A model generated the notes under the pieces. The model was not told the DNA's origin. It saw nothing but the letters and a program-made list of their open reading frames with translations, and searched no databases. Positions 6,410 to 55,215 of a DNA stretch of 64,000 bases are shown here, piece by piece. This stretch comes from Patescibacteria group bacterium (GTDB lineage Bacteria; Patescibacteriota; Minisyncoccia; Minisyncoccales; GWA2-38-27): contig JAHCRG010000003.1 of NCBI GenBank assembly GCA_020148045.1, positions 34,087 through 98,086 of the forward strand, given 5' to 3'. Each line of letters begins with the position of its first letter. Position 1 is the stretch's first letter. Both the position numbers and the translations under genes were made by a program.

Positions 6410-7030
6410 ATGTTTAAAACTCTTAACAAAGTTGTAAAAGTAATGGTTTTTTCTGATTTGGTTTTGAATTCTGGCTGGGGCTTGGTTGGCCCAATTTTAG
6501 CTATTTATATTGTAGGAAGCATTCAGGGAGGAAACGTTAAAGTGGCTGGAATTGCTATGGGAGTTTACTGGTTGGGCAAATCAATTCTCCAAATACCATT
6601 TTCTCATTATTTAGACGAGAATCATGGAGAGAAAGACGATTATTATGCCTTATTTGGAGGAACTCTTCTGGCTAGCCTTACTCCGATTGGCTTTATTTTT
6701 GCCACATTGCCCTGGCATATATATGTTCTCCAAGGAGTCCATGCCGTAGGTATGGCTCTGGCTATTCCTTCTTGGTCAGCTATTTTCACTCGCCATATTG
6801 AGAAAAAAAGAGAGGCCTTTTGCTGGGGCTTAGACAGTTCTGCTATTGGGCTTGGAGCGGGAGTAGCTGCAATTTTAGGAGGAGCAATAGCTGAGATTTT
6901 CGGATTTATTCCTCTTTTTATTGGGGTGAGCGCTTTTGGAATAGTAGCTTCCTTTTTGTTTTTACTAATTAGAAAAGAAATTTTGCCGAAAGTGCCAGAA
7001 GAAAGAGTATTCCCAATGCCAAAACCATGA
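6410..7030 (+). CDS. 6-TM half-size MFS-like transporter, paralog B
   Basis: About 45% identical to the preceding ORF, with the same loop motif (HYLDENHGEKDD). Confidence 0.45.
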   Translation: MFKTLNKVVKVMVFSDLVLNSGWGLVGPILAIYIVGSIQGGNVKVAGIAMGVYWLGKSILQIPFSHYLDENHGEKDDYYALFGGTLLASLTPIGFIFATLPWHIYVLQGVHAVGMALAIPSWSAIFTRHIEKKREAFCWGLDSSAIGLGAGVAAILGGAIAEIFGFIPLFIGVSAFGIVASFLFLLIRKEILPKVPEERVFPMPKP

Positions 7031-8769
7031 GAAATCAGGAGTTAGCTAAAATTTTTTATGACATTGCTAATTATCTTGAGATGGAAGAGGTTGCTTTTAA
7101 ACCCTATGCTTATCAAAAAGTAGCTATTACTTTAGAATCATTGGAAGAAGACGTTGAAGAAATTTATAAAAAAGGAGGGTTAAAGGGGCTTGAAGAGATT
7201 CCTGGGGTAGGAAAAAACATTGCTCTGAAAATTGAAGAATATCTTAAAACCGGAAGAATTAAATTTTACGAGAAATTAAAAAAGAAAACTCCGATAAATT
7301 TAGAAGAAATGATTACTGTGGAAGGAATGGGGCCTAGAAAAGTAAAGATTCTTTATCAGAAATTGGGAATTAAGAATTTAAAGGATTTAGAAAAAGCAGC
7401 TAAGTCACATAAAATTGCTCCTTTGTTTGGCTTTGGAGAAAAAACAGAAAAGAATATTTTAGAGGGAATTGCTTTTTTGAAAAAGAGTAAAGGAAGATTT
7501 CTTTTGGGAGACATAATGCCGGTTGTCAAAGAGGTTTCAGAAGAGTTAAAAGGTTTAAAAGAAGTTAAAGAAATAAGTGTGGCAGGTTCAGTTAGAAGGA
7601 TGAAAGAGACAATTGGTGACGTTGATTTTTTAATAATTTCAAAAAATCCAAAGAAAGTGATGGATTTTTTTGTTTCTTTACCAGATGTAATTAAAATCTG
7701 GAGTAAAGGGCCGACAAAGTCTTCTGTCAGGATGAAAAATGGCTTTGATATGGATTTAAGAGTAGTTCCTGCTAAAAGTTATGGTTCAGCTCTTCAATAT
7801 TTTACTGGCTCAAAAGAACATAATATTGCTACTCGGCGGATTGCTATAGCTAAAGGTTTGAAGTTGAATGAATATGGAGTTTTCAAGGGCTCTAAAATGA
7901 TAGCTGGCAGGACTGAAAAAGAAGTTTATAAGACAATTGGTCTTCCCTTGATGCCTCCTGAAATGAGAGAAAACGAGGGAGAAATTGAAGCAGCCCTTCG
8001 GCAAGCTCGGGGCAGGCCCAACGGGTTACCAAAAATTATTGGCTACGATGACATTCGGGGAGATTTACATTGTCATTCAGATTGGGATGGTGGAACAAAT
8101 TCAATTAAAGAGATGGCCGAAGCTGCAATTGTTCAGGGATATGAATATTTGGGCATTGCAGACCATACTAAGTTTTTGAGGATAGAGCATGGATTAAATG
8201 AGAGGCAACTATCTCAACAAAGAAAAGAAATTGAAAAATTAAATTCAAAATTCAAAATTCAAAATTCAAAATTTAGAGTATTACAGGGCTGCGAAGCAAA
8301 CATTATGAATGACGGTTCTATTGATATTAAAGATGAAGCTCTTAAAAAATTAGATTATGTTATTGCTGGAGTTCATTCAAGTATGAAAATGGAAAAAGAA
8401 AAAATGACAGAAAGAATAATCAAAGCAATGAAAAATCCTAATGTTGATATTATCTCCCACCCAACAGGAAGAATAATTAAGCGCCGGGATGAGTATCAGG
8501 TTGATTTTGAAAAGATTTTAAGAGCGGCCAGGGAACTAGGAACAATCTTAGAAATAAACTCTTCTCCAGACAGATTAGATTTAAAAGATGTGTATATTAG
8601 GAGAGTAAAAGAAGTAGGGGTAAAAATGGTAATTAATACTGATTCTCATCATAGAGATCAGTTGAGATTTATTAGATTTGGAATTGCCCAAGCTCGGCGC
8701 GGCTGGGCAGAGAAAAAAGATATCATCAACACCCAGTCATTAAGTGAGCTTTTAAAATTTTTTAGATAA
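7027..8769 (+). CDS. polX: DNA polymerase X family with C-terminal PHP phosphoesterase domain
   Basis: N-terminal PolX HhH region (IPGVGKNIALKIEEYL) and nucleotidyltransferase (GSVRRMKETIGDVDFLI); C-terminal PHP (HCHSDWDGG…IADHT). Confidence 0.8.
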   Translation: MRNQELAKIFYDIANYLEMEEVAFKPYAYQKVAITLESLEEDVEEIYKKGGLKGLEEIPGVGKNIALKIEEYLKTGRIKFYEKLKKKTPINLEEMITVEGMGPRKVKILYQKLGIKNLKDLEKAAKSHKIAPLFGFGEKTEKNILEGIAFLKKSKGRFLLGDIMPVVKEVSEELKGLKEVKEISVAGSVRRMKETIGDVDFLIISKNPKKVMDFFVSLPDVIKIWSKGPTKSSVRMKNGFDMDLRVVPAKSYGSALQYFTGSKEHNIATRRIAIAKGLKLNEYGVFKGSKMIAGRTEKEVYKTIGLPLMPPEMRENEGEIEAALRQARGRPNGLPKIIGYDDIRGDLHCHSDWDGGTNSIKEMAEAAIVQGYEYLGIADHTKFLRIEHGLNERQLSQQRKEIEKLNSKFKIQNSKFRVLQGCEANIMNDGSIDIKDEALKKLDYVIAGVHSSMKMEKEKMTERIIKAMKNPNVDIISHPTGRIIKRRDEYQVDFEKILRAARELGTILEINSSPDRLDLKDVYIRRVKEVGVKMVINTDSHHRDQLRFIRFGIAQARRGWAEKKDIINTQSLSELLKFFR

Positions 8770-8773
8770 AAAT

Positions 8774-9229
8774 ATGCCAAAGGAAACATCAGCTGGAGCT
8801 GTAATTTTTAGAAAAGAGGATAGTAATATTTACTATCTCCTTTTGCATTACAAATCAGGCCATTGGGATTTTCCTAAGGGAAATATTGAAAAAGGGGAGA
8901 AAGAAGGAGAGACGGTAAAGAGAGAAGTAGCGGAAGAAACAGGAATTGAGGATATTAAGATAGTTGAAGGTTTTAAAGAATGGATAAAATATTTTTATCG
9001 CAAAACCTATGGTTTAAATGAAAATGAGAAGAAAAAAGTTCCCTGGACTTTCAAAATAGTTACTTTTTATTTAGCTGAGACCAGGACTAAAGAAGTGAAA
9101 ATTTCTTTTGAACATATAGGATATGAATGGTTAATATATAAAGAGGCGATTGAAAGAGTAACATATAAGAATGCTAAGGAGGTTTTAAAGAAAGCAAATG
9201 AATACCTTATTTCAAAGAAAAGTATATAA
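8774..9229 (+). CDS. NUDIX hydrolase
   Basis: Nudix box GNIEKGEKEGETVKREVAEETGI (G-x5-E-x7-REUxEExGU). Confidence 0.8.
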   Translation: MPKETSAGAVIFRKEDSNIYYLLLHYKSGHWDFPKGNIEKGEKEGETVKREVAEETGIEDIKIVEGFKEWIKYFYRKTYGLNENEKKKVPWTFKIVTFYLAETRTKEVKISFEHIGYEWLIYKEAIERVTYKNAKEVLKKANEYLISKKSI

Positions 9230-9476
9230 AGTGGTTAAAGAGATTCCAAAAGGTAAGGTTTTGACATACAAAATAGTAGCTAAGAAAGCAGGCTATCCAC
9301 GAGCGTGGAGAGCAGTAGGAAATGTTTTGAATAGAAATAAAAATCCTGAGATTCCTTGCCATCGGGTAATAAGAAGCAATGGAAATATTGGAGGATACAA
9401 CCGAGGAGTAAAACGAAAAAGAACTTTACTTTTAAAAGAAGGTGTGGTAGTAAAGAATATCAAAGTTGTTCGTTGA
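9198..9476 (+). CDS. ogt: methylated-DNA-protein-cysteine methyltransferase (MGMT/Ogt C-terminal domain, standalone)
   Basis: PCHRV active-site motif and an HTH (YKIVAKKAGYPRAWRAVGNVL). Confidence 0.7.
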   Translation: MNTLFQRKVYKVVKEIPKGKVLTYKIVAKKAGYPRAWRAVGNVLNRNKNPEIPCHRVIRSNGNIGGYNRGVKRKRTLLLKEGVVVKNIKVVR

Positions 9477-9511
9477 AAACAGAAGATAGGGTTTTAAAGA
9501 AGGAGAAAGAA

Positions 9512-10981
9512 ATGAGTGCTGGACTGTTTGCATTAAGTATTAATCCGGAGAGTTTTCAGGGCGATTTTCAGGAGATAATTTTTTGGGGTACTTCTTATGC
9601 TCAGCATTTTAGCGGAAAGTTTTCTGGTTTTGCTTCGTTTGATGGTAAGAGGATCATCAGCGACAGTAAATCCGGACTATTTGCTCCTAATTTTGAAGAA
9701 AGGATAAGCGAATTTATCGGGCCAGAAGCTATTGGATATTGCGGCCCAGCTGAGGAACCTTTCTATGTAGGAAAATCAGATGTCGGTAGTTTTAGTGCTT
9801 GTTTCGGTGGCAACATTAGAAACTGCGATGAATTAATAAGGGATTTTTTACACGCCAAGCACAATTTCGAAAGAACAGATGACATCGTAGCAATGAGCAA
9901 ACTTATTATCCAAGGGGCAGATATCATCGATGGTATTAGGCGGATGAGCGAAAAAATTGACGGGGCTTATACTCTTTTGCTCCTTACTCCAGAAGGGATT
10001 TATGCTGTTCGTTCTCCCGACGGTCACTGGCCCCTAGTAATTGGCTGCAGCAAGGAACAAGACGCAGTAATAGTTGCTTCTGAGTGTGTAGGATTTGATA
10101 ATCTTGGTTTTAAACGAGTTAGAGATATTGAGCCGGGAGAGATTGTGTTGCTGAAAGACGGACATTGGTTCAAAAAAAGTGCGCTTCCAAAAACACAAGT
10201 TCAAGAATGTAGTTTCTTTGGAGCATATACTTCTTCTCGTGCTGCGATAGTTCATGGGATTCCAGCTACTTTAATCAGGAGGGGGTTAGGAGCCGCTTCA
10301 GCCAAACGAGACATTGCCGATGATTTTACTCCCCATGTAGTAATGGGCGTGCCTGCCTCTGGTCTTTCCTCTGCCGAGGGTTATAAGGAGACATTTGATG
10401 CTGAAATAAATCGACAGATAAGCTCAGGGAATATAACTCTGAAATGGGTTCCTTTTTATCGTCAGGATTTAATTAAGCATATCATGGTGAGGAGCTATCT
10501 AGCCCCGACTCAGGAAGAGAGAGAAAGAAGAGCTTATTACAAAATTGTGATTACTAGTGAGACCATTAAGCACATTCTTCAGTGGTTAGAAGAAGAAGGT
10601 TTGACAGTAATATTGGGGGATATAAAGTCAAAAAGGAGGATAATCTTAGTTGTCTGCGATGATTCTATTGTTAGGGGAAGTCAGATGAAGTCGAATCTGG
10701 CTCCAAAAACAAGAATAATATATGAGATGGAAGTAGATGGGGTTGATATAAAAGTTGAAATTCATCTAAGAATCTCTTTCCCTCCACTCCGTTCTTATTG
10801 TCCTCACGGAAAGACAACCAAAAGGGGGGAAACTTTAGTTGAGCAACATCCGGATGAAGAAGATAGAATTAGAGCATTAGGAGTAGATGGTTTGAAGTAT
10901 AACAGTGTTGATGATTTGGTTGGGATAATTGGCAAGCCCCGAGAGCAACTATGTATAGATTGCTGCTTCCGTAGAGAATAA
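9512..10981 (+). CDS. PurF-like amidophosphoribosyltransferase homolog with Cys1 replaced (MSAG…)
   Basis: Gn_AT_II-like core (DGAYTLLLLTPEGIYAVRSPDGHWPLVIG…VIVASECVGFDNLGF) and PRTase domain (VVMGVPASGLSSAEGY…ILVVCDDSIVRGSQ). The ATG at 9512 has a good RBS (AAGGAGAAAGAA ATG). The ORF-track start at 9356 overlaps ogt and is unlikely. Confidence 0.6.
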   Translation: MSAGLFALSINPESFQGDFQEIIFWGTSYAQHFSGKFSGFASFDGKRIISDSKSGLFAPNFEERISEFIGPEAIGYCGPAEEPFYVGKSDVGSFSACFGGNIRNCDELIRDFLHAKHNFERTDDIVAMSKLIIQGADIIDGIRRMSEKIDGAYTLLLLTPEGIYAVRSPDGHWPLVIGCSKEQDAVIVASECVGFDNLGFKRVRDIEPGEIVLLKDGHWFKKSALPKTQVQECSFFGAYTSSRAAIVHGIPATLIRRGLGAASAKRDIADDFTPHVVMGVPASGLSSAEGYKETFDAEINRQISSGNITLKWVPFYRQDLIKHIMVRSYLAPTQEERERRAYYKIVITSETIKHILQWLEEEGLTVILGDIKSKRRIILVVCDDSIVRGSQMKSNLAPKTRIIYEMEVDGVDIKVEIHLRISFPPLRSYCPHGKTTKRGETLVEQHPDEEDRIRALGVDGLKYNSVDDLVGIIGKPREQLCIDCCFRRE

Positions 10982-10985
10982 GAAG

Positions 10986-11030
10986 AATTTAAAAAGCCAT
11001 CTTTCAAAGGTGGCTTTCTTTTTATCATAG
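10986..11030. terminator. bidirectional intrinsic terminator between the convergent PurF-like gene and rplT
   Basis: AAAAAGCCATCTTTCAAAGGTGGCTTTCTTTTT hairpin with A-run and T-run flanks. Confidence 0.5.
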
Positions 11031-11575: not shown

Positions 11576-12085
11576 CTATTTTTTGGAAATAATCATTGTT
11601 AATCCTCTTGGTTGTCTTTTTAATTCTCTTTCAATTTTTATTGGAATTGACTTTTCTAATGCCTCAAGAAATTTTTTTATTTTTTCTTTAGCAAAATCTT
11701 GATGTGCTTTTTCTCTTCCTCTCAATTTCATCTCTATTCTAACCTTATATCCTGACTTTAAAAATTTTTCTGTTTGTCTGACTCTTGTTTCTAAATCGTG
11801 TTCAGAAATTCCAAAAGTTAATCTTATTCCTTTAAGTAAGCTTATCCGGTGATCTTTAGCTGATTTTTCTTTCTTTTTCAGTTGATAAAGATATTTTCCA
11901 TAGTCCATTAGTTTACAAACAGGCGGCTCAACTTTTTCTGTAACCTGGATTAAATCGAAACCGCGCTCCCTTGCTATTTGGAGCGCTTTTGTTAATACCA
12001 AAACTCCCAGTTGTTTTCCAGCTTCATCAATCACCCTTACTTCTCTGGCCCTTATTCGATTGTTGACTAATGGTTTTCTTTGCAC
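11576..12085 (-). CDS. infC: translation initiation factor IF-3 (GTG start)
   Basis: N- and C-domain motifs (IRAREVRVIDEAGKQLGVL…); upstream of rpmI-rplT. Confidence 0.85.
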   Translation of the reverse strand: MQRKPLVNNRIRAREVRVIDEAGKQLGVLVLTKALQIARERGFDLIQVTEKVEPPVCKLMDYGKYLYQLKKKEKSAKDHRISLLKGIRLTFGISEHDLETRVRQTEKFLKSGYKVRIEMKLRGREKAHQDFAKEKIKKFLEALEKSIPIKIERELKRQPRGLTMIISKK

Positions 12086-12086
12086 T

Positions 12087-12425
12087 GTGGAGATGGCGAG
12101 GGTGAACTCGCGTCCAAAAGTTTTGCCAAAATAGTTCTACAGATTTAGTCTGTTTTAATTTTCAGATACCAAGCAAGAAACAGACAAAATCTTAGTATCT
12201 TATCCTCGTTTGTTTCAATAATTCCCTTGAGGAAGAAAATTATCTATCTCGCGATTATAACGCCAAAGATTGCTTAGCGAGAATCAGTAATCCCGACGGC
12301 GTTAAGCAAATGCTAACGCAGGTTTCTTAAATAAGTTAGCACTTATTTTTTCTGGAAGTTTTACCAGATTCCAAGCTGGAACTGCTTTATCCTGACAAAA
12401 ACTTCTGTCAAAACTTTTCATCCCC
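12087..12425 (-). ncRNA. ssrA: tmRNA (SsrA); predicted tag peptide ANLFKKPALAFA
   Basis: Minus-strand transcript begins GGGGAUGAAAAG… and ends …GGACGCGAGUUCACCCUCGCCAUCUCCAC. The 5' GGGGAUG pairs with 3' CAUCUCC to form the acceptor stem, and a T-arm GCGAG-UUCACCC-CUCGC is present. An internal ORF GCU AAC UUA UUU AAG AAA CCU GCG UUA GCA UUU GCU UAA is present. The gene lies immediately downstream of smpB. Confidence 0.75.
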
Positions 12426-12867
12426 GTGATTTTAATTCTCTTTTTAATTCTCTTTCTGCTTCTCGTTTTTTAATTAGCTCTCTTTTGTCAGCTTTTTTTC
12501 TTCCTTTAGCTATTCCAAATTCAAGCTTAATTTTACCTCTCTTAGTATACACTCTTAAGGGTATTAAAGTCAAGCCCTTTTGTTTTGTTTTCCCGATTAA
12601 ATGTTTAATTTCTAACTTATTCAAAAGAAGTTTTCTTGACTTTTCTGGTTCATAATCTTTAGGAGCGTTTTTTGGTTGATAAGGAGGGATATTAGCTCCG
12701 ATTAAATACGGTTCCTCTCCCTTTAGAACCACATAAGAACCTTTTAAGCTCATCCTCCCTGATTTTATTGACTTTACTTCCTGTCCAATCAAAACCATGC
12801 CTGCTTCAAATTTCTCCAGGATTTCATAGTCAAACCTCGCTTTTCTATTTTCCGCAAGAACCTTCAT
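12418..12867 (-). CDS. smpB: SsrA-binding protein SmpB
   Basis: MKVLAENRKARFDYEILEKFEAGMVLIGQEVKSIKSGRMSLKGSYV… is a canonical SmpB. Confidence 0.9.
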   Translation of the reverse strand: MKVLAENRKARFDYEILEKFEAGMVLIGQEVKSIKSGRMSLKGSYVVLKGEEPYLIGANIPPYQPKNAPKDYEPEKSRKLLLNKLEIKHLIGKTKQKGLTLIPLRVYTKRGKIKLEFGIAKGRKKADKRELIKKREAERELKRELKSRG

Positions 12868-37494: not shown

Positions 37495-38736
37495 ATGGAG
37501 CTTAGTAAAATCGACCCAAAAATTGCAGAGCTTATTGAAAAAGAAAAAGAAAGGCAGAAAACTACGCTGGAGATGATTCCTTCTGAAAATCATACCTCTC
37601 CAGCGGTACGAGAGGCTTTGGGTTCTGTTTTAACTGATAAATACGCTGAAGGATATCCTAAAAAAAGATATTATGCTGGCTTGGAATTCTATGATAAGAT
37701 TGAAGCCCTTTGCCAGGAAAGAGCAAAGAAGATATTTAAAGTAGCTCATGTTAATGTTCAACCCTATTCTGGCTCACCAGCAAATCAAGCAGTTTATTTC
37801 GCTCTTTTAGAGCCAAGAGATACTGTAATGGGAATGTCTCTTCCTCATGGAGGCCATTTAACCCATGGCTGGAAAGTAAGTTTTTCCGGAAAGTATTTTA
37901 AATCTGTTCAGTATGGAGTTGATAAAAAAACAAATTTGCTTAATTATCAAGAAATAGGAAAGTTAGCTAAAAAAGCAAAGCCAAAACTTATTTGGGTTGG
38001 AGCTACTGCTTATCCTCGGATTTTTGACTGGAAAAAATTAGGCATGATTGCTGATTCAGTCAGGGCTTATCTTGTAGCTGATATCGCTCATATCGCAGGA
38101 TTAATTGTTGCTGGAGTTCATCCCAGTCCTGTTCCTTATGTTCATATTGTTACAACTACTACTCATAAAACTTTAAGAGGTCCTAGGGGTGGAATGATAA
38201 TGGTTACTAGAAAAGGATTAAAAAAAAATCCAGAGCTTACTCAAAAGATTGATAAGTCAGTTTTTCCTGGTCTTCAAGGTGGTCCTCATGAAAATAATAT
38301 AGCTGCTATTGCTGTTTGCTTAAAAGAAGCATCAAAACCAGGTTTTAAAAGATATGGAAAGCAGATTGTGAAAAATTGTAAGATATTAGCTTCAGAACTT
38401 TTAAAATATGGCTTTGATTTAGTCACTGCTGGCACTGATAATCATTTAATTTTAATTGATTTGAGGAATAAGAAAATTTCAGGAAAAGAAGCTCAAAACC
38501 GGCTGGAAAAAGCTGGCATTACTGTTAATAAAAATACTATTCCTTTTGATCCCAATCCTCCATTTAATCCTTCTGGAATTCGCTTAGGCACACCAGCTAT
38601 AACAACCAGGGGAATGAAAGAAAAAGAAATGAGAAAAATTACTTTTTGGATTAATGAAGTTATTTCTGATGCTAAAAATTGTTTAAGAGTTAGGAAAGAA
38701 GTTAAAAAACTTTGTAGAAAATTTCTTTTGCCATGA
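37495..38736 (+). CDS. glyA: serine hydroxymethyltransferase
   Basis: LEMIPSENHTSPAV…TTTTHKTLRGPRGG PLP-lysine region. Confidence 0.9.
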   Translation: MELSKIDPKIAELIEKEKERQKTTLEMIPSENHTSPAVREALGSVLTDKYAEGYPKKRYYAGLEFYDKIEALCQERAKKIFKVAHVNVQPYSGSPANQAVYFALLEPRDTVMGMSLPHGGHLTHGWKVSFSGKYFKSVQYGVDKKTNLLNYQEIGKLAKKAKPKLIWVGATAYPRIFDWKKLGMIADSVRAYLVADIAHIAGLIVAGVHPSPVPYVHIVTTTTHKTLRGPRGGMIMVTRKGLKKNPELTQKIDKSVFPGLQGGPHENNIAAIAVCLKEASKPGFKRYGKQIVKNCKILASELLKYGFDLVTAGTDNHLILIDLRNKKISGKEAQNRLEKAGITVNKNTIPFDPNPPFNPSGIRLGTPAITTRGMKEKEMRKITFWINEVISDAKNCLRVRKEVKKLCRKFLLP

Positions 38737-39497
38737 AGATTCTAGATGGGAAAAAAATATCTAAGAAGATTTTGAAGAACCTTAAAAGAGAAATAGAAAA
38801 AAAGGGACTGAAATTGAAATTAGCTGTAATTTTTGTTGGAAAGGACCCAGCTTCAAAGATCTTTATTAGAGAAAAAAAGAAAGCTTGTGAGTTTGTTAGG
38901 ATTGATTTTGAATTATTTAGATTTCCAGCAAGGATTAGTAACTCAGTACTGAAAAAAGAAATTAAGAAAATTGTCAAAAACCCTACTATCTCTGGAGTTG
39001 TAATTCAATTGCCTTTGCCAGAGAAATTTAATGTTCAAGAATTCTTAAGCCTTGTTCCTTCAGAAAAAAATATTGAAGCTGTTTCGCCGGTTGTTTGCGC
39101 TATAGATTATATTTTGAGGAGGTATAAAATTTCTTTGAAAAGAAAAACCATAGTTTTAGTAGGACACGGAAGATTGGTTGGGAGACCCTTGGCTAAATGG
39201 TTTAAAAATAAAAAAATCAAGTTCTACAATATTAATAAAATCAAAAAAGCAGATATTATAATTTCCGGAGTGGGCAGACCGGGTTTTATTACCGGAGATA
39301 TGGTTAAAAAAGGAGCAGTAATAATTGATGTTGGTTTTTCTCACAATAAAAAGAGGAAAGCAGCCGGCGATGTAGATTTCAAAAGCGTCTCTAAAAAAGC
39401 AAGCTATATTACTCCAGTTCCCGGAGGCGTTGGTCCTATGACCATTGCTTGCTTGCTTAAAAACTTAGTATGGACTTATACTTATTCCAACAAATAA
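38733..39497 (+). CDS. folD: methylenetetrahydrofolate dehydrogenase/cyclohydrolase
   Basis: ILDGKKISKKI…LAVIFVGKDPASKIF…VVIQLPLP…VPGGVGPMT. Confidence 0.75.
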   Translation: MKILDGKKISKKILKNLKREIEKKGLKLKLAVIFVGKDPASKIFIREKKKACEFVRIDFELFRFPARISNSVLKKEIKKIVKNPTISGVVIQLPLPEKFNVQEFLSLVPSEKNIEAVSPVVCAIDYILRRYKISLKRKTIVLVGHGRLVGRPLAKWFKNKKIKFYNINKIKKADIIISGVGRPGFITGDMVKKGAVIIDVGFSHNKKRKAAGDVDFKSVSKKASYITPVPGGVGPMTIACLLKNLVWTYTYSNK

Positions 39498-40626: not shown

Positions 40627-40710
40627 TGCCTGGGGTGGGACTCGAACCCACATGAGATTGCTCTCACATCGTTTTGAGCGATGCGCGTAAACCAATTCCG
40701 CCACCCAGGC
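40627..40710 (-). tRNA. tRNA-Leu (anticodon CAA), type II with long variable arm
   Basis: GCCTGGG acceptor pairs with CCCAGGC. D-loop GGAATTGGTTTA. Anticodon stem CATCG/CGATG with loop CTCAAAA. Variable arm TGAGAgcaaTCTCA. T-arm GTGGG-TTCGAGT-CCCAC. Discriminator A. Confidence 0.85.
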
Positions 40711-52323: not shown

Positions 52324-54465
52324 ATGAAAAATAGAATTACCAAAGTTCACCTTCCAAAATTTTCCAAAAGAAAAATTACGAAGGTAAAAAAAAGGGATGA
52401 GACGATTGTAGATTTTGAGCAAGAAAAAATTACTGATGCTATTTTTAAAGCCATAACTGCAACTGGTCAGGGCGATGGGAAAAGGTCAAAAAAACTTTCA
52501 GATAGGGTGGTTAAATTTTTAAATCGTCGCTTTAAAAAAGATGAAATTCCTCAAGTAGAACAGATTCAGGACATTGTTGAGGAAGTTTTAATTTTGGATG
52601 GCTTAGTTGAGACCGCCCGAGCATATATTCTATACCGTGAGCAAAGAAGAAGAATCCGCGAGGCAGTAGCAGTTGTTGATGAGTCAAGCGAAAGGATTGA
52701 TAAATATTTGCAAGAACTTGATTGGCAGGTTTACGAAAACGCTAATATGACTTTTTCTTTGCAGGGTTTGAATCAATATGCAATTACAGATATTTCTAAG
52801 AAATATTGGTTAAACAAAATTTATCCTAAAGAGATAAGAGAAGCGGCTCTTAACGAAGATTTCCATATCCATGATTTAGAAAGTATTAGTACATATTGTA
52901 TGGGTTGGGATCTTTATGATTTACTAAAGAGAGGATTTAGAGGGGTGTCAGGAAAACTGGAATGCCGTCCAGCAAAACATTTCAGAACAGCTTTAGGTCA
53001 GTTGGTAAATTTCTTCTATACAGTCCAAGGTGAGTCGGCAGGTGCGCAAGCTGTTTCTAATTTTGATACACTCCTTGCTCCTTTTATCCGTTATGATGGT
53101 TTAAGCTACCCTCAGGTTAAACAAGCAATGCAGGAATTTTTATATAATTGTATGGTGCCCACTCGAGTTGGTTTCCAGACCCCTTTCTTAAATGTAACTC
53201 TTGATATTAAGCCACCCTCTTTTCTGGCTAAGCAGCCAGTAATTATTGGAGGCGAGCCCCAAAAAGAGACCTATGGCGAGTTTCAGGAAGAGATGGATAT
53301 GTTTATTCGGACTTTTTACGAAGAATTAATGGAAGGTGATGCTAAAGGAAGACCTTTTACATTTCCTATTCCAACAGTTTCCATAACTAAAGATTTTGAT
53401 TGGGATAATCCGGCTCTAAATCCTTTGTGGGAGGCAACCGCAAAGTACGGGGTTAATTATTTCCAGAATTTCATTCAATCAGATATGCGTCCAGAGGATT
53501 TCCGTTCGATGTGTTGCCGGCTTCGTTTGTCAAAGAAAGAACTCTATATGAGAGGAGGAGGATTGTTTGGATCACAGCCCTTAACAGGAAGCTTGGGTGT
53601 AGTAACTATAAATCTGTCCCGGATTGGTTATCTTTCTAAAACCAAAAAAGAGTTTTTTGAAAGATTAGAGAATCTAATGGACTTAGCTAAAGAGAGTTTG
53701 GAAATTAAGAGGAAAGCTTTAGATAATTTTATGGAAAAAGGCCTCTATCCTTATTCAAAATTTTATTTAGCTTCGGTTAAAAAAATACGAAATTCTTACC
53801 TTGGAAACCACTTTTCAACTATTGGGTTAATAGGGATGAATGAAGCTCTTTTGAATTTTATTGGAGAGGATGTAGGTTCTCGTCGGGGAAAAAGGTTTGC
53901 TTTTGAACTTTTGGATTTTATGCGGGAAAGATTAATTAAATATCAGGAGGAAACCGGGAATTTATATAATCTTGAAGCTACTCCTGGCGAGGGGACGAGC
54001 TATCGTCAGGCAAAAGCTGACAAAGACGAATATCCGGATATTGTTACTGCCGGTACAAAAGAAGCACCGTATTATACAAACTCCTCTCAACTGCCGGTTA
54101 ACTATACTGATGATATTTTTGATGCCTTAAAACTCCAAGATGAACTTCAATGTAAATATACAGGAGGCACAGTTCTCCATATATTTTTGGGCGAAAGGAT
54201 TCATGATTCCCAGATGGCTAAAAATTTAGTTAAAAAAGTTTTTGAGAATTTCCATTTACCTTATATTACTTTGACCCCAACCTTTTCAATCTGTCCTAGT
54301 CATGGTTATTTGACTGGAGAACACTTTTATTGCCCGAAATGCACAATCAAGCAGCCTTGCGAGGTTTATTCAAGAATTGTGGGGTACATTCGTCCCGTGT
54401 CCCAATGGCATATTGGCAAGCGCCGGGAATTTAAAGAGAGGAAAGAGTTTAAAATAAAAGTATAA
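52324..54465 (+). CDS. nrdD: anaerobic ribonucleoside-triphosphate reductase (class III)
   Basis: ATP-cone N-terminus, CCRLRL thiyl region, C-terminal C4 zinc (CPSHG…CPKC) and glycyl-radical motif RIVGY. Confidence 0.85.
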   Translation: MKNRITKVHLPKFSKRKITKVKKRDETIVDFEQEKITDAIFKAITATGQGDGKRSKKLSDRVVKFLNRRFKKDEIPQVEQIQDIVEEVLILDGLVETARAYILYREQRRRIREAVAVVDESSERIDKYLQELDWQVYENANMTFSLQGLNQYAITDISKKYWLNKIYPKEIREAALNEDFHIHDLESISTYCMGWDLYDLLKRGFRGVSGKLECRPAKHFRTALGQLVNFFYTVQGESAGAQAVSNFDTLLAPFIRYDGLSYPQVKQAMQEFLYNCMVPTRVGFQTPFLNVTLDIKPPSFLAKQPVIIGGEPQKETYGEFQEEMDMFIRTFYEELMEGDAKGRPFTFPIPTVSITKDFDWDNPALNPLWEATAKYGVNYFQNFIQSDMRPEDFRSMCCRLRLSKKELYMRGGGLFGSQPLTGSLGVVTINLSRIGYLSKTKKEFFERLENLMDLAKESLEIKRKALDNFMEKGLYPYSKFYLASVKKIRNSYLGNHFSTIGLIGMNEALLNFIGEDVGSRRGKRFAFELLDFMRERLIKYQEETGNLYNLEATPGEGTSYRQAKADKDEYPDIVTAGTKEAPYYTNSSQLPVNYTDDIFDALKLQDELQCKYTGGTVLHIFLGERIHDSQMAKNLVKKVFENFHLPYITLTPTFSICPSHGYLTGEHFYCPKCTIKQPCEVYSRIVGYIRPVSQWHIGKRREFKERKEFKIKV

Positions 54466-54528
54466 TTACTTTCTAAGTATATCCCTGAACTCGTTGACTT
54501 TAAAGGGATTTTTTTATTTAATTAACTA

Positions 54529-55215
54529 ATGATTATAGGCGGATTACAAAAACTTACTTTAATAGATTATCCTGGCAAATTAGCTGCCACGGTTTTTCTG
54601 GCTGGCTGTAATTTTTGCTGTCCCTGGTGTTACAGTTCGGAGCTTGTTCTTCCAGAAAAAATTAAAAAGCAACCTAAAATCTCAGAGAAAGAATTTTTTG
54701 AGTTTTTAGAAGAACGAAAAGGATTATTGAAAGGAGTGACGGTCTGTGGAGGAGAGCCAACCATTAATAAAGATTTGCCAAATTTTGCCAAAGAAATAAA
54801 AAAACTTGGATATTCAGTAAAACTTGATACTAATGGCTCTAATCCAACGATGCTAAAAAAGTTAATTGATAATAATTTAATTGACTATGTAGCTATGGAT
54901 GTGAAACTTCCCAAGGAAAAATACTCAGAACTATATTCAAAAGTTGAAAATATAGAAAAAAGCATTAAAATATTGAAAGAAGACAAAATAGATTGTGAAT
55001 TTAGGACCACGGTAATACCTACTGTTTTGGAGAAAAAAGATATCTTGAAAATTGCCAGATGGATTTCCCCAGCTAAAAAATATTATCTTCAAAACTTTCG
55101 GCCAGAAAAAACCATTGACCCAAAATTTAAAAAAATAAAACCTTATTCTGAAAAATATCTCTCGGAGATTAAAAAAGCAATTTCTCCATTTTTTGAAGTT
55201 TGTCAAATTAGATAA
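54529..55215 (+). CDS. nrdG: anaerobic RNR activating protein (radical SAM)
   Basis: AGCNFCCPWC CxxxCxxC and GGEPT. Confidence 0.8.
   Translation: MIIGGLQKLTLIDYPGKLAATVFLAGCNFCCPWCYSSELVLPEKIKKQPKISEKEFFEFLEERKGLLKGVTVCGGEPTINKDLPNFAKEIKKLGYSVKLDTNGSNPTMLKKLIDNNLIDYVAMDVKLPKEKYSELYSKVENIEKSIKILKEDKIDCEFRTTVIPTVLEKKDILKIARWISPAKKYYLQNFRPEKTIDPKFKKIKPYSEKYLSEIKKAISPFFEVCQIR

Follow-up and report, generated by a model that had tools for sequence, protein, structure and literature searches.

A PurF paralogue clade without the N-terminal cysteine in Patescibacteria and Acidobacteriota, with a dismantled glutaminase site and a conserved PRPP site

The PurF-like gene and its two domains

The stretch analysed here (the window, 64 kb of contig JAHCRG010000003.1) comes from a member of the Patescibacteria and carries, at 9512–10,981 on the forward strand, a gene for a 489-residue homologue of the amidophosphoribosyltransferase PurF, which catalyses EC 2.4.2.14. 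An earlier note on this DNA had remarked that the N-terminal cysteine of PurF, Cys1, is replaced in this protein. The replacement holds, as Ala3 occupies the Cys1 column and none of 120 aligned sequences has a cysteine there. As judged from these alignments, the loss of Cys1 is a trait of a family, here called clade A, and not a peculiarity of the query genome, and clade A itself is a widespread, cross-phylum clade of PurF paralogues in which the glutaminase site is dismantled.

The best-supported start of the gene is the ATG at 9512, from which the translation opens MSAGLFALS; the stop codon ends at 10,981, and a Shine-Dalgarno sequence read from the DNA (AAGGAG, 9500–9505, +) lies 6 nt 5' of the ATG. 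The public gene call (P0001) begins 13 codons earlier, at a TTG at 9473 that overlaps the stop codon of the preceding MGMT gene, and predicts 502 residues; its 13-codon leader adds MKTEDRVLKKEKE and contains no cysteine. Going by the family alignment and the position of the Shine-Dalgarno sequence, we favour the ATG and the 489-residue product. The frame stays open further 5', as far as a TTG at 9356, and this extension includes a cysteine in the context RRCGSKEY. An upstream in-frame start exposing a cysteine, for which the earlier note had left room, was examined and excluded, as the extension falls within the MGMT gene, which is read in a different frame, its cysteine context is unlike the CG[IV][FV]G strand of PurF, and starting there would place 24 surplus residues ahead of the strand that aligns with β-strand 1 of PurF. 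The same protein recurs in L005, a Logan assembly made independently, and on an ENA scaffold of 111 kb, which makes a sequencing artefact unlikely. Rfam revealed no riboswitch or other RNA element upstream of the gene, its only matches in the window being one transfer-messenger RNA (tmRNA) and one tRNA. With regard to a defence or phage origin, PADLOC gave no match and the sole PHROG match is unannotated.

That the open reading frame (ORF) encodes a PurF homologue, as the note had it, is borne out by profile, sequence and fold searches. The curated PurF profile TIGR01134 matches it with an E-value of 2e-36, and the closest solved relatives by sequence are Bacillus subtilis PurF (1ao0 and 1gph, E ~1e-29), followed by the Arabidopsis and Escherichia coli enzymes; Pfam detects only GATase_7, at residues 89–193. 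An AlphaFold2 model built from a 28-sequence alignment of the family reached a predicted local distance difference score (pLDDT) of 91.2 and a predicted template modelling score of 0.89, and its sole clearly weaker stretch, residues 321–340, corresponds to the flexible loop of PurF. The top Foldseek match of the model was again 1ao0 (E 1e-31, template modelling scores 0.77/0.82), with GlmS and AsnB ranking after PurF and matching through the N-terminal domain only. Model and Foldseek match point to the two-domain fold of PurF, in which an N-terminal nucleophile (Ntn) amidotransferase domain is joined to a type I phosphoribosyltransferase (PRTase), and domain profile searches found no DNA-binding or signalling domain. 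As the TIGR01134 score is 126.1 bits against a curated cutoff of 350, we take the protein to be a PurF homologue that lies outside the curated PurF family and is not a canonical PurF.

The earlier note had credited the protein with the full core of a class II glutamine amidotransferase. GATase_7 and the site tables place an Ntn-type class II amidotransferase domain at residues 1 to ~230 (9512–10,201, +), and the overall fold survives, but at four or more positions, of which Cys1 is only one, the glutaminase site is dismantled. All site counts are from an alignment of 120 clade A sequences (119 homologues and the query) with 12 canonical PurFs; the homology search gave 504 matches, and our statements on N-termini cover the 120 listed. 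All of these carry M-[A/P/S]-G-[LI]-F-[AG]-[LI]-S at the start or after a short mis-called leader, and 116 open directly with M-[A/P/S/E]-G-[LI]-F. The Cys1 column, cysteine in the 12 canonical proteins, holds alanine (76), proline (40), serine (3) or glutamate (1) in clade A. Arg26, likewise present in all 12, is replaced by leucine in 113 of the 120 and by Phe33 in the query. The glutamine loop, which in canonical PurF reads GIGH[VI]RY followed by about 14 residues and contains Arg73-Tyr74, is a short GIGYCG-x2-(R/K)EP in clade A (GIGYCG...EEP in the query), with Gly78 in the Arg73 column without exception (120/120). At the oxyanion Asn101 column, asparagine in the 12 canonical proteins, clade A has serine (101) or threonine (11), and the query has Gly99. 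Equivalents of His25, Pro87, Gly102, Asn103 and Asn106 are preserved in clade A, in canonical PurF and in the query. Preserved too is the equivalent of Asp127, the residue of PurF that binds the α-amino group of glutamine (Asp124 in the query; aspartate in 113 of the 120 and in 12 of 12 true PurFs). Because Cys1, Arg26, the Arg73-Tyr74 loop and the oxyanion asparagine are replaced family-wide, clade A, on the evidence of this alignment, cannot hydrolyse glutamine in the manner of PurF.

The same pocket contains residues that are new to it. Cys77, valine in PurF, stands one residue ahead of the Arg73 column in 120 of 120 clade A proteins; Cys97, alanine or serine in PurF, stands two residues ahead of the Asn101 column in 118. 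Glu82 of the remodelled loop is invariant, and position 81 is arginine or lysine in most members and glutamate in the query. With the invariant Cys77-Gly78, Cys97 and Glu82, the retained Asp124 and the usual arginine or lysine at 81, the remodelled pocket looks designed and not abandoned. Across the wider superfamily Cys77, Cys97 and Cys382, the last of which adjoins the phosphoribosyl pyrophosphate (PRPP) loop, do not strictly co-occur.

The PRTase domain takes up residues ~231–489 (10,202–10,978, +), as delimited by the HMMER alignment to 1ao0, the family alignment and the dip in pLDDT at 321–340. The earlier note had asked about the status of its PRPP and [4Fe-4S] ligands, and the alignment finds the PRPP loop and all four cysteine positions intact. 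The PRPP loop reads Cys382-DDSIVRG in the query; Asp384, Ser385 and Arg388 are present in 120 of 120 sequences, position 383 is aspartate or glutamate in all of them, and Gly389 is found in 119. The flexible loop, K..GRSF in the query and K..GR[ST]F in the family, keeps Lys322 in 119 sequences and Arg327 and Ser328 in 120. Cys233, Cys430, Cys481 and Cys484 occupy [4Fe-4S] ligand positions, each in 120 of 120. By the HMMER alignment Cys233 corresponds to Cys236 of 1ao0 and Cys430 to Cys382 of 1ao0, and Cys481-x2-Cys484 aligns to the C-terminal CxxC region, where the register relative to Cys434, Cys437 and Cys440 is ambiguous by three residues. The ligand motif of the B. subtilis-type enzyme, as reportedly described by Smith et al. 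1994, is thereby retained and marks a putative cluster site. The subclade of the query carries two helical inserts, and an extra helix of ~19 residues lies in the PRTase domain. Over the 120-sequence alignment, which spans Patescibacteria and Acidobacteriota, the mean frequency of the majority residue is 0.69 in the N-terminal domain and 0.74 in the PRTase part; as both domains are under comparable constraint across the two phyla, this argues for a working protein and against a decaying copy.

Spread of the family and gene neighbourhood

Among 1.84 billion 50%-identity representatives, searched exhaustively with HMMER, 82 clusters (50% identity) match at E≤1e-30 and 1,216 at E≤1e-10, with scores that grade into those of ordinary PurFs. 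Starting from an acidobacterial member, a second search, this one word-indexed, gave at least 1,260 clusters (90% identity) at E≤1e-60; all 1,260 come from metagenome-assembled genomes or metagenomes and are labelled "hypothetical protein" or "amidophosphoribosyltransferase", and no cultured host for clade A appeared in this search. The genome matches belong to Patescibacteria (Nealsonbacteria, Minisyncoccales, Wildermuthbacteria and others) and to the Bryobacterales/Solibacteraceae of the Acidobacteriota, whose genomes are large, and a few clade A proteins carry an Aminicenantes label. Proteins of the two phyla, such as P0020 of the Minisyncoccales and P0104 of the Acidobacteriota, are 63–67% identical, and the window's own subclade is only 44–47% identical to either. 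As the 63% identity of a Minisyncoccales protein to an acidobacterial one is high for phyla so distant, the comparison suggests horizontal exchange of clade A between Patescibacteria and Bryobacterales.

A neighbour-joining tree was computed for 129 representatives from BLOSUM distances without support values and is hence informative on grouping and not on branching order; in it the query clade, with the signature x-L-S-C, forms a coherent group apart from the PurFs that have Cys1, Arg26 and Asn101. Between the two lie a second, large Cys-less group, clade B ("MSGIFGVVS..GTDYHSHLGT"), and several intermediate groups. The sister of clade A in this tree is a clade opening "MSGI[VI]ALS". Three loci of this sister clade (L049 and L055, at ~7.6–9.5 kb, and L052) have the PurF-like gene within a heat-shock operon, grpE-dnaK-DUF3467-[PurF-like]-dnaJ, in which GrpE, DnaK and DnaJ were named from N-terminal sequences only and DUF3467 by Pfam.

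The window as a whole is typical Patescibacterial housekeeping DNA, with genes for aminoacyl-tRNA synthetases, ribosomal proteins, FtsA/FtsZ, TopA, DprA, ComEC, GlyA-FolD and NrdD with its activase. The PurF-like gene is the last of four co-directional, tightly packed genes without an internal terminator. The run begins with a PolX-PHP DNA polymerase (7027–8769, +), which is conserved in 19 clade A loci, and continues with a Nudix hydrolase (8774–9229, +) that has a perfect Nudix box and a Pfam NUDIX match and whose nearest solved relatives are asymmetric diadenosine tetraphosphate (Ap4A) hydrolases (human NUDT2, 3u53, E 1e-16; Aquifex, 3i7u). Some Nudix enzymes of the Ap(n)A/DIPP type reportedly hydrolyse PRPP to ribose 1,5-bisphosphate (Fisher et al. 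2002), and if this applied here the Nudix and PurF-like neighbours would both be PRPP-related. The third gene, recognised by profile matches (9198–9476, +), encodes a stand-alone catalytic C-terminal domain of MGMT of 92 residues with a PCHR motif; as this active-site motif is intact, the protein is not of the Cys-less ATL type. The first 32 nt of this gene lie within the Nudix gene, and 35 nt separate its end from the ATG of the PurF-like gene; the coordinates and domains of the Nudix-MGMT cluster are as the earlier note had described them. Downstream, between the PurF-like gene and the convergent rplT, lies a terminator-like hairpin with an 11-bp stem and a T-run (10,993–11,017, +).

Conservation of this neighbourhood was followed by calling ORFs in 85 + 80 related loci, 44 of them of clade A, and clustering all neighbours. 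The link of Nudix and MGMT to the PurF-like gene is kept in one Patescibacterial lineage and is absent elsewhere. In that lineage the order MFS-PolX-Nudix-(MGMT)-PurF-like, followed by the convergent rplT-rpmI-infC-smpB and then argS, is conserved, in a syntenic block of at least 10 unrelated housekeeping genes that also takes in GreA and ileS; of the 44 clade A loci, 19 have PolX, 14 of these syntenic 19 have Nudix ahead of the PurF-like gene, and 6 have MGMT. Five Patescibacterial loci (L001, L011, L031, L032 and L048) and all ~30 Acidobacteriota loci lack the PolX-Nudix-MGMT arrangement. Unrelated genes are inserted within the run from PolX to the PurF-like gene, among them a glycosyltransferase. 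Directly 5' of the PurF-like gene stands an IMP dehydrogenase in L015 (3657–5153) and L044 (6401–7894), at 434 bits against a TIGR01302 cutoff of 481, and an aspartate carbamoyltransferase (PyrB), above its cutoff, in L020 (6791–7867) and L022 (7191–7856). At least some related Patescibacteria, as these inserts show, have thus retained part of the synthesis or interconversion of nucleotides. In ~12 loci of Bryobacterales (L002/L003 and L045, each at 6879–7844, −; L033, L038, L024, L067 and others) the PurF-like gene adjoins, divergently or in tandem, a gene for a stand-alone 321-residue PP-loop ATPase resembling the C-terminal part of GuaA, which scores 287 bits against a guaA_Cterm cutoff of 339 and has no GATase domain.

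Clustering of the neighbours in the 85 + 80 loci found no partner gene common across lineages, only lineage-specific synteny, and all that recurs in the context is a loose tie to nucleotide metabolism. As the block is housekeeping synteny, MGMT is present in only 6–7 of the ~19 loci and the slot accepts other genes, the linkage to Nudix and MGMT is weak evidence of functional coupling, and in our view these genes do not form an operon with a common function. Beyond the hairpin, the tmRNA of the window (12,085–12,425, −; 134 bits) lies directly 3' of smpB (12,418–12,867, −), and the tRNA is at 40,627–40,710 (−).

The organism is, as the earlier note had supposed, a reduced one. The anaerobic ribonucleotide reductase NrdD with its radical-SAM activase NrdG (52,324–55,215, +) and GlyA-FolD (37,495–39,497, +) indicate an anaerobe that makes deoxynucleotides and one-carbon folates. 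An anaerobic host is compatible with an oxygen-labile Fe-S enzyme.

Proposed function and its alternatives

Based on these data we propose that the protein is a PRPP-dependent PurF paralogue with transferase activity that does without glutamine. In the PRTase domain, a nucleophile formed otherwise than by Cys1 chemistry would take the place of the pyrophosphate of PRPP, and the remodelled, conserved N-terminal domain would act as a ligand-binding or gating module. The proposal of a PRPP transferase draws on the retention of the DDS[IV]VRG loop, the K..GR[ST]F loop and the [4Fe-4S] positions, which together comprise all that PRPP binding and activation are known to require. Free ammonia is the simplest candidate for the nucleophile, which would give phosphoribosylamine, because E. 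coli PurF in which Cys1 is changed to alanine or serine loses the use of glutamine and keeps ammonia-dependent activity (Mei & Zalkin 1989, as cited in PMC3261824). In favour of the proposal, the non-housekeeping neighbours, where there are any, are nucleotide-related (IMP dehydrogenase and PyrB, and the GuaA-like protein in Bryobacterales). The parts of this reading differ in strength. It is close to certain that we are dealing with a Cys-less PurF paralogue that is glutamine-independent in the PurF sense, and its PRTase is probably, though by no means surely, catalytically active; that ammonia is the acceptor is possible but doubtful. The whole, a glutamine-independent, PRPP-dependent PurF paralogue with ammonia as the simplest acceptor, is the best single explanation that we can offer, and we hold it tentatively, at a little under an even chance, because its product would have no evident use and because the pocket looks designed.

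Several observations weigh against it. As the earlier note had stated, the window has no other genes of de novo purine synthesis, at least among the annotated ORFs of its 64 kb. A pur gene lies within 8 kb in only one of the 44 clade A loci, compared to 10 of 64 other Cys-less loci and 9 of 35 canonical PurF loci; the difference between 1/44 and the 19/99 of the other PurF clades is significant (Fisher p=0.007). We know of no use of phosphoribosylamine except by PurD. Since Patescibacteria are as a rule described as having no de novo purine synthesis (PMC11974145, PMC5113843), an ammonia-dependent phosphoribosylamine synthase would seem useless in this host. Furthermore, the mere entry of ammonia needs no invariant Cys77-Gly78, Cys97 and Glu82 and no retained Asp124, which hints at a specific ligand or chemistry. 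The query departs from the family consensus at several places (an extra Ser2, Phe33, Gly99, Glu81, Val126 and Ala282), and a search of the accessible literature found no biochemical data on members of clade A.

It is conceivable, though rather unlikely in our estimate, that clade A represents a new activity. It could be a PRPP transferase whose N-terminal domain binds or generates another nucleophile, or an Ntn amidotransferase with a relocated cysteine, serving the salvage of nucleotides or ribose in organisms without de novo purine synthesis and exchanged horizontally between Patescibacteria and Bryobacterales.

PurF is an allosteric protein that binds nucleotides and ppGpp, and the paralogue might have kept this property alone, as a non-catalytic pseudoenzyme acting as a sensor of PRPP or purine nucleotides or as a regulatory subunit, for instance of another PRPP-using enzyme. 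The loss of the four glutaminase elements and the stand-alone gene in varied contexts would fit such a role, and the top fold matches are PurF structures with GMP, ADP, ppGpp and ppApp; a distant Cys-less clade that sits beside canonical PurF in pur operons would also suit a regulatory partner. Yet Lys322, Arg327, Ser328 and the Mg-PRPP aspartates are invariant, which binding alone would not require, a canonical PurF is adjacent in none of the 44 clade A loci, and the protein has neither a DNA-binding nor a signalling domain. We regard the pseudoenzyme as an unlikely explanation.

Could the nucleophile have moved within the domain, so that Cys77, or Cys97, releases ammonia from glutamine or another amide or amine donor and feeds it to the PRTase site? 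The two cysteines are almost universal in clade A and close to the Arg73 and Asn101 columns, the equivalent of Asp127 is kept, most members have arginine or lysine at position 81 in the remodelled loop, and the flexible loop, which in PurF forms the ammonia channel, is retained. However, we know of no precedent for a relocated nucleophile among Ntn amidotransferases, where the free α-amino group of residue 1 acts as general base. The oxyanion asparagine is lost, the query lacks Arg81, and Cys77, Cys97 and Cys382 part company in the wider superfamily, all of which makes this alternative improbable.

The tight, co-directional packing with PolX, Nudix and MGMT, with no terminator between the genes, and the recurrence of these neighbours (PolX ahead of the PurF-like gene in 19 clade A loci, Nudix in 14, MGMT in 6) could also be read as an operon for DNA repair or nucleotide sanitation, in which the PRTase acts, for example, on a modified base. 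We consider this very improbable, as the synteny runs on through MFS, GreA, rplT-rpmI-infC, smpB, argS and ileS and looks like the gene order of a lineage, the arrangement is missing from the five Patescibacterial and ~30 Acidobacteriota loci named above, and IMP dehydrogenase, PyrB and glycosyltransferase genes interrupt the run. In PurF the Ntn domain takes the place of the base-binding hood of other PRTases. Lastly, an ordinary PurF with a mis-called start or a sequencing error, although databases often label members "amidophosphoribosyltransferase", is scarcely credible, as no upstream cysteine has the proper context, Cys1 is absent from all 120 sequences together with three more catalytic positions, the TIGR01134 score is 126 bits against a cutoff of 350, and the identical protein occurs in the independent assembly L005.

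Other Cys-less PurF relatives and significance

The glutamine-independent PRPP transferase that we propose is not a categorically new system, and its likeness to known enzymes is graded. With B. subtilis PurF (1ao0/1gph) clade A shares the Ntn and PRTase fold, the DDS[IV]VRG and K..GR[ST]F loops, Asp127 and the four cysteine positions of the cluster ligands. It differs in being ~24% identical, in having no Cys1, in having leucine or phenylalanine for Arg26 and serine or glycine for the oxyanion asparagine, in a GYCG-x2-(R/E)EP loop in place of GHVRY, in Cys77, Cys97 and the extra helix of ~19 residues, in a score far below the cutoff of the hidden Markov model and in its lack of linkage to pur genes.

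Our search of the accessible literature found one account of Cys-less PurF paralogues, the crenarchaeal PurF' of Brown et al. 2011 (Biol Direct 6:63), which has alanine or valine for the N-terminal cysteine and was predicted not to be a glutamine amidotransferase (PMC3261824). PurF' was proposed to be ammonia-dependent, and its genes adjoin purF and other pur genes in archaea that synthesise purines (PMC3261824). Compared by this description, clade A is alike in having no N-terminal cysteine, whereas its genes stand alone, in hosts believed to be without the purine pathway. The proteins retrieved from Thermoplasmata have Cys1 and Arg26 wherever the ORF calls captured the N-terminus, and two loci of Thermoplasmata/Methanomassiliicoccales (L076 and L080, 7.9–10.7 kb) have a pair of canonical purF genes in tandem, each encoding Cys1 and Arg26.

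Clade B, like clade A, has lost Cys1 and Arg26 and kept the PRPP loop and the Fe-S cysteines; unlike clade A, it has no Cys77-Gly78, is separate in the tree, is 28–32% identical and is often found in pur operons. Eight of its loci (L097, L107, L109, L123, L126, L130, L138 and L153) have the order purB-purL-(LOG-family)-purQ-[paralogue]-purM, in which NCBIfam confirms PurB, PurL, PurQ, PurM and the TIGR00730/LOG-like protein. In four clade B loci the operon also encodes a canonical PurF with Cys1, an arrangement that mirrors, in bacteria, the crenarchaeal pair of PurF and PurF'.

A further likeness lies outside the PurF family. β-Lactam synthetase and carbapenam synthetase are AsnB homologues that lost Cys1 and whose synthase domain kept its chemistry with a new nucleophile. 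By analogy, clade A would resemble them in the loss of the glutaminase nucleophile and the retention of a synthase-type domain, although their synthase is a PP-loop ATPase and the kinship in sequence is confined to the Ntn domain.

These comparisons have practical consequences. In metabolic reconstructions of Patescibacteria and Acidobacteriota the label "amidophosphoribosyltransferase" on such proteins gives false calls of the first step of purine synthesis as present. With more than 1,000 clusters at 90% identity, strong conservation, four glutaminase residues replaced together and the PRPP machinery intact, clade A is a tractable target for enzyme discovery, either of an ammonia-dependent route or of a new PRPP-dependent reaction. 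The Cys-less "PurF-prime" that was noted in Crenarchaeota in 2011 would moreover be one part of a far broader diversity of PurF paralogues in bacteria, and of these some sit in purine operons beside the canonical enzyme.

Divergent PurF-like genes are also found directly 3' of carB, in L098, L100–L103 and L116, and genes of clade B occupy the same place in L118, L125, L129 and L137. One carB-linked type has kept Cys1 and Arg26 and lost the oxyanion asparagine ("..DNCGVFG..LQHRGQEYCGI").

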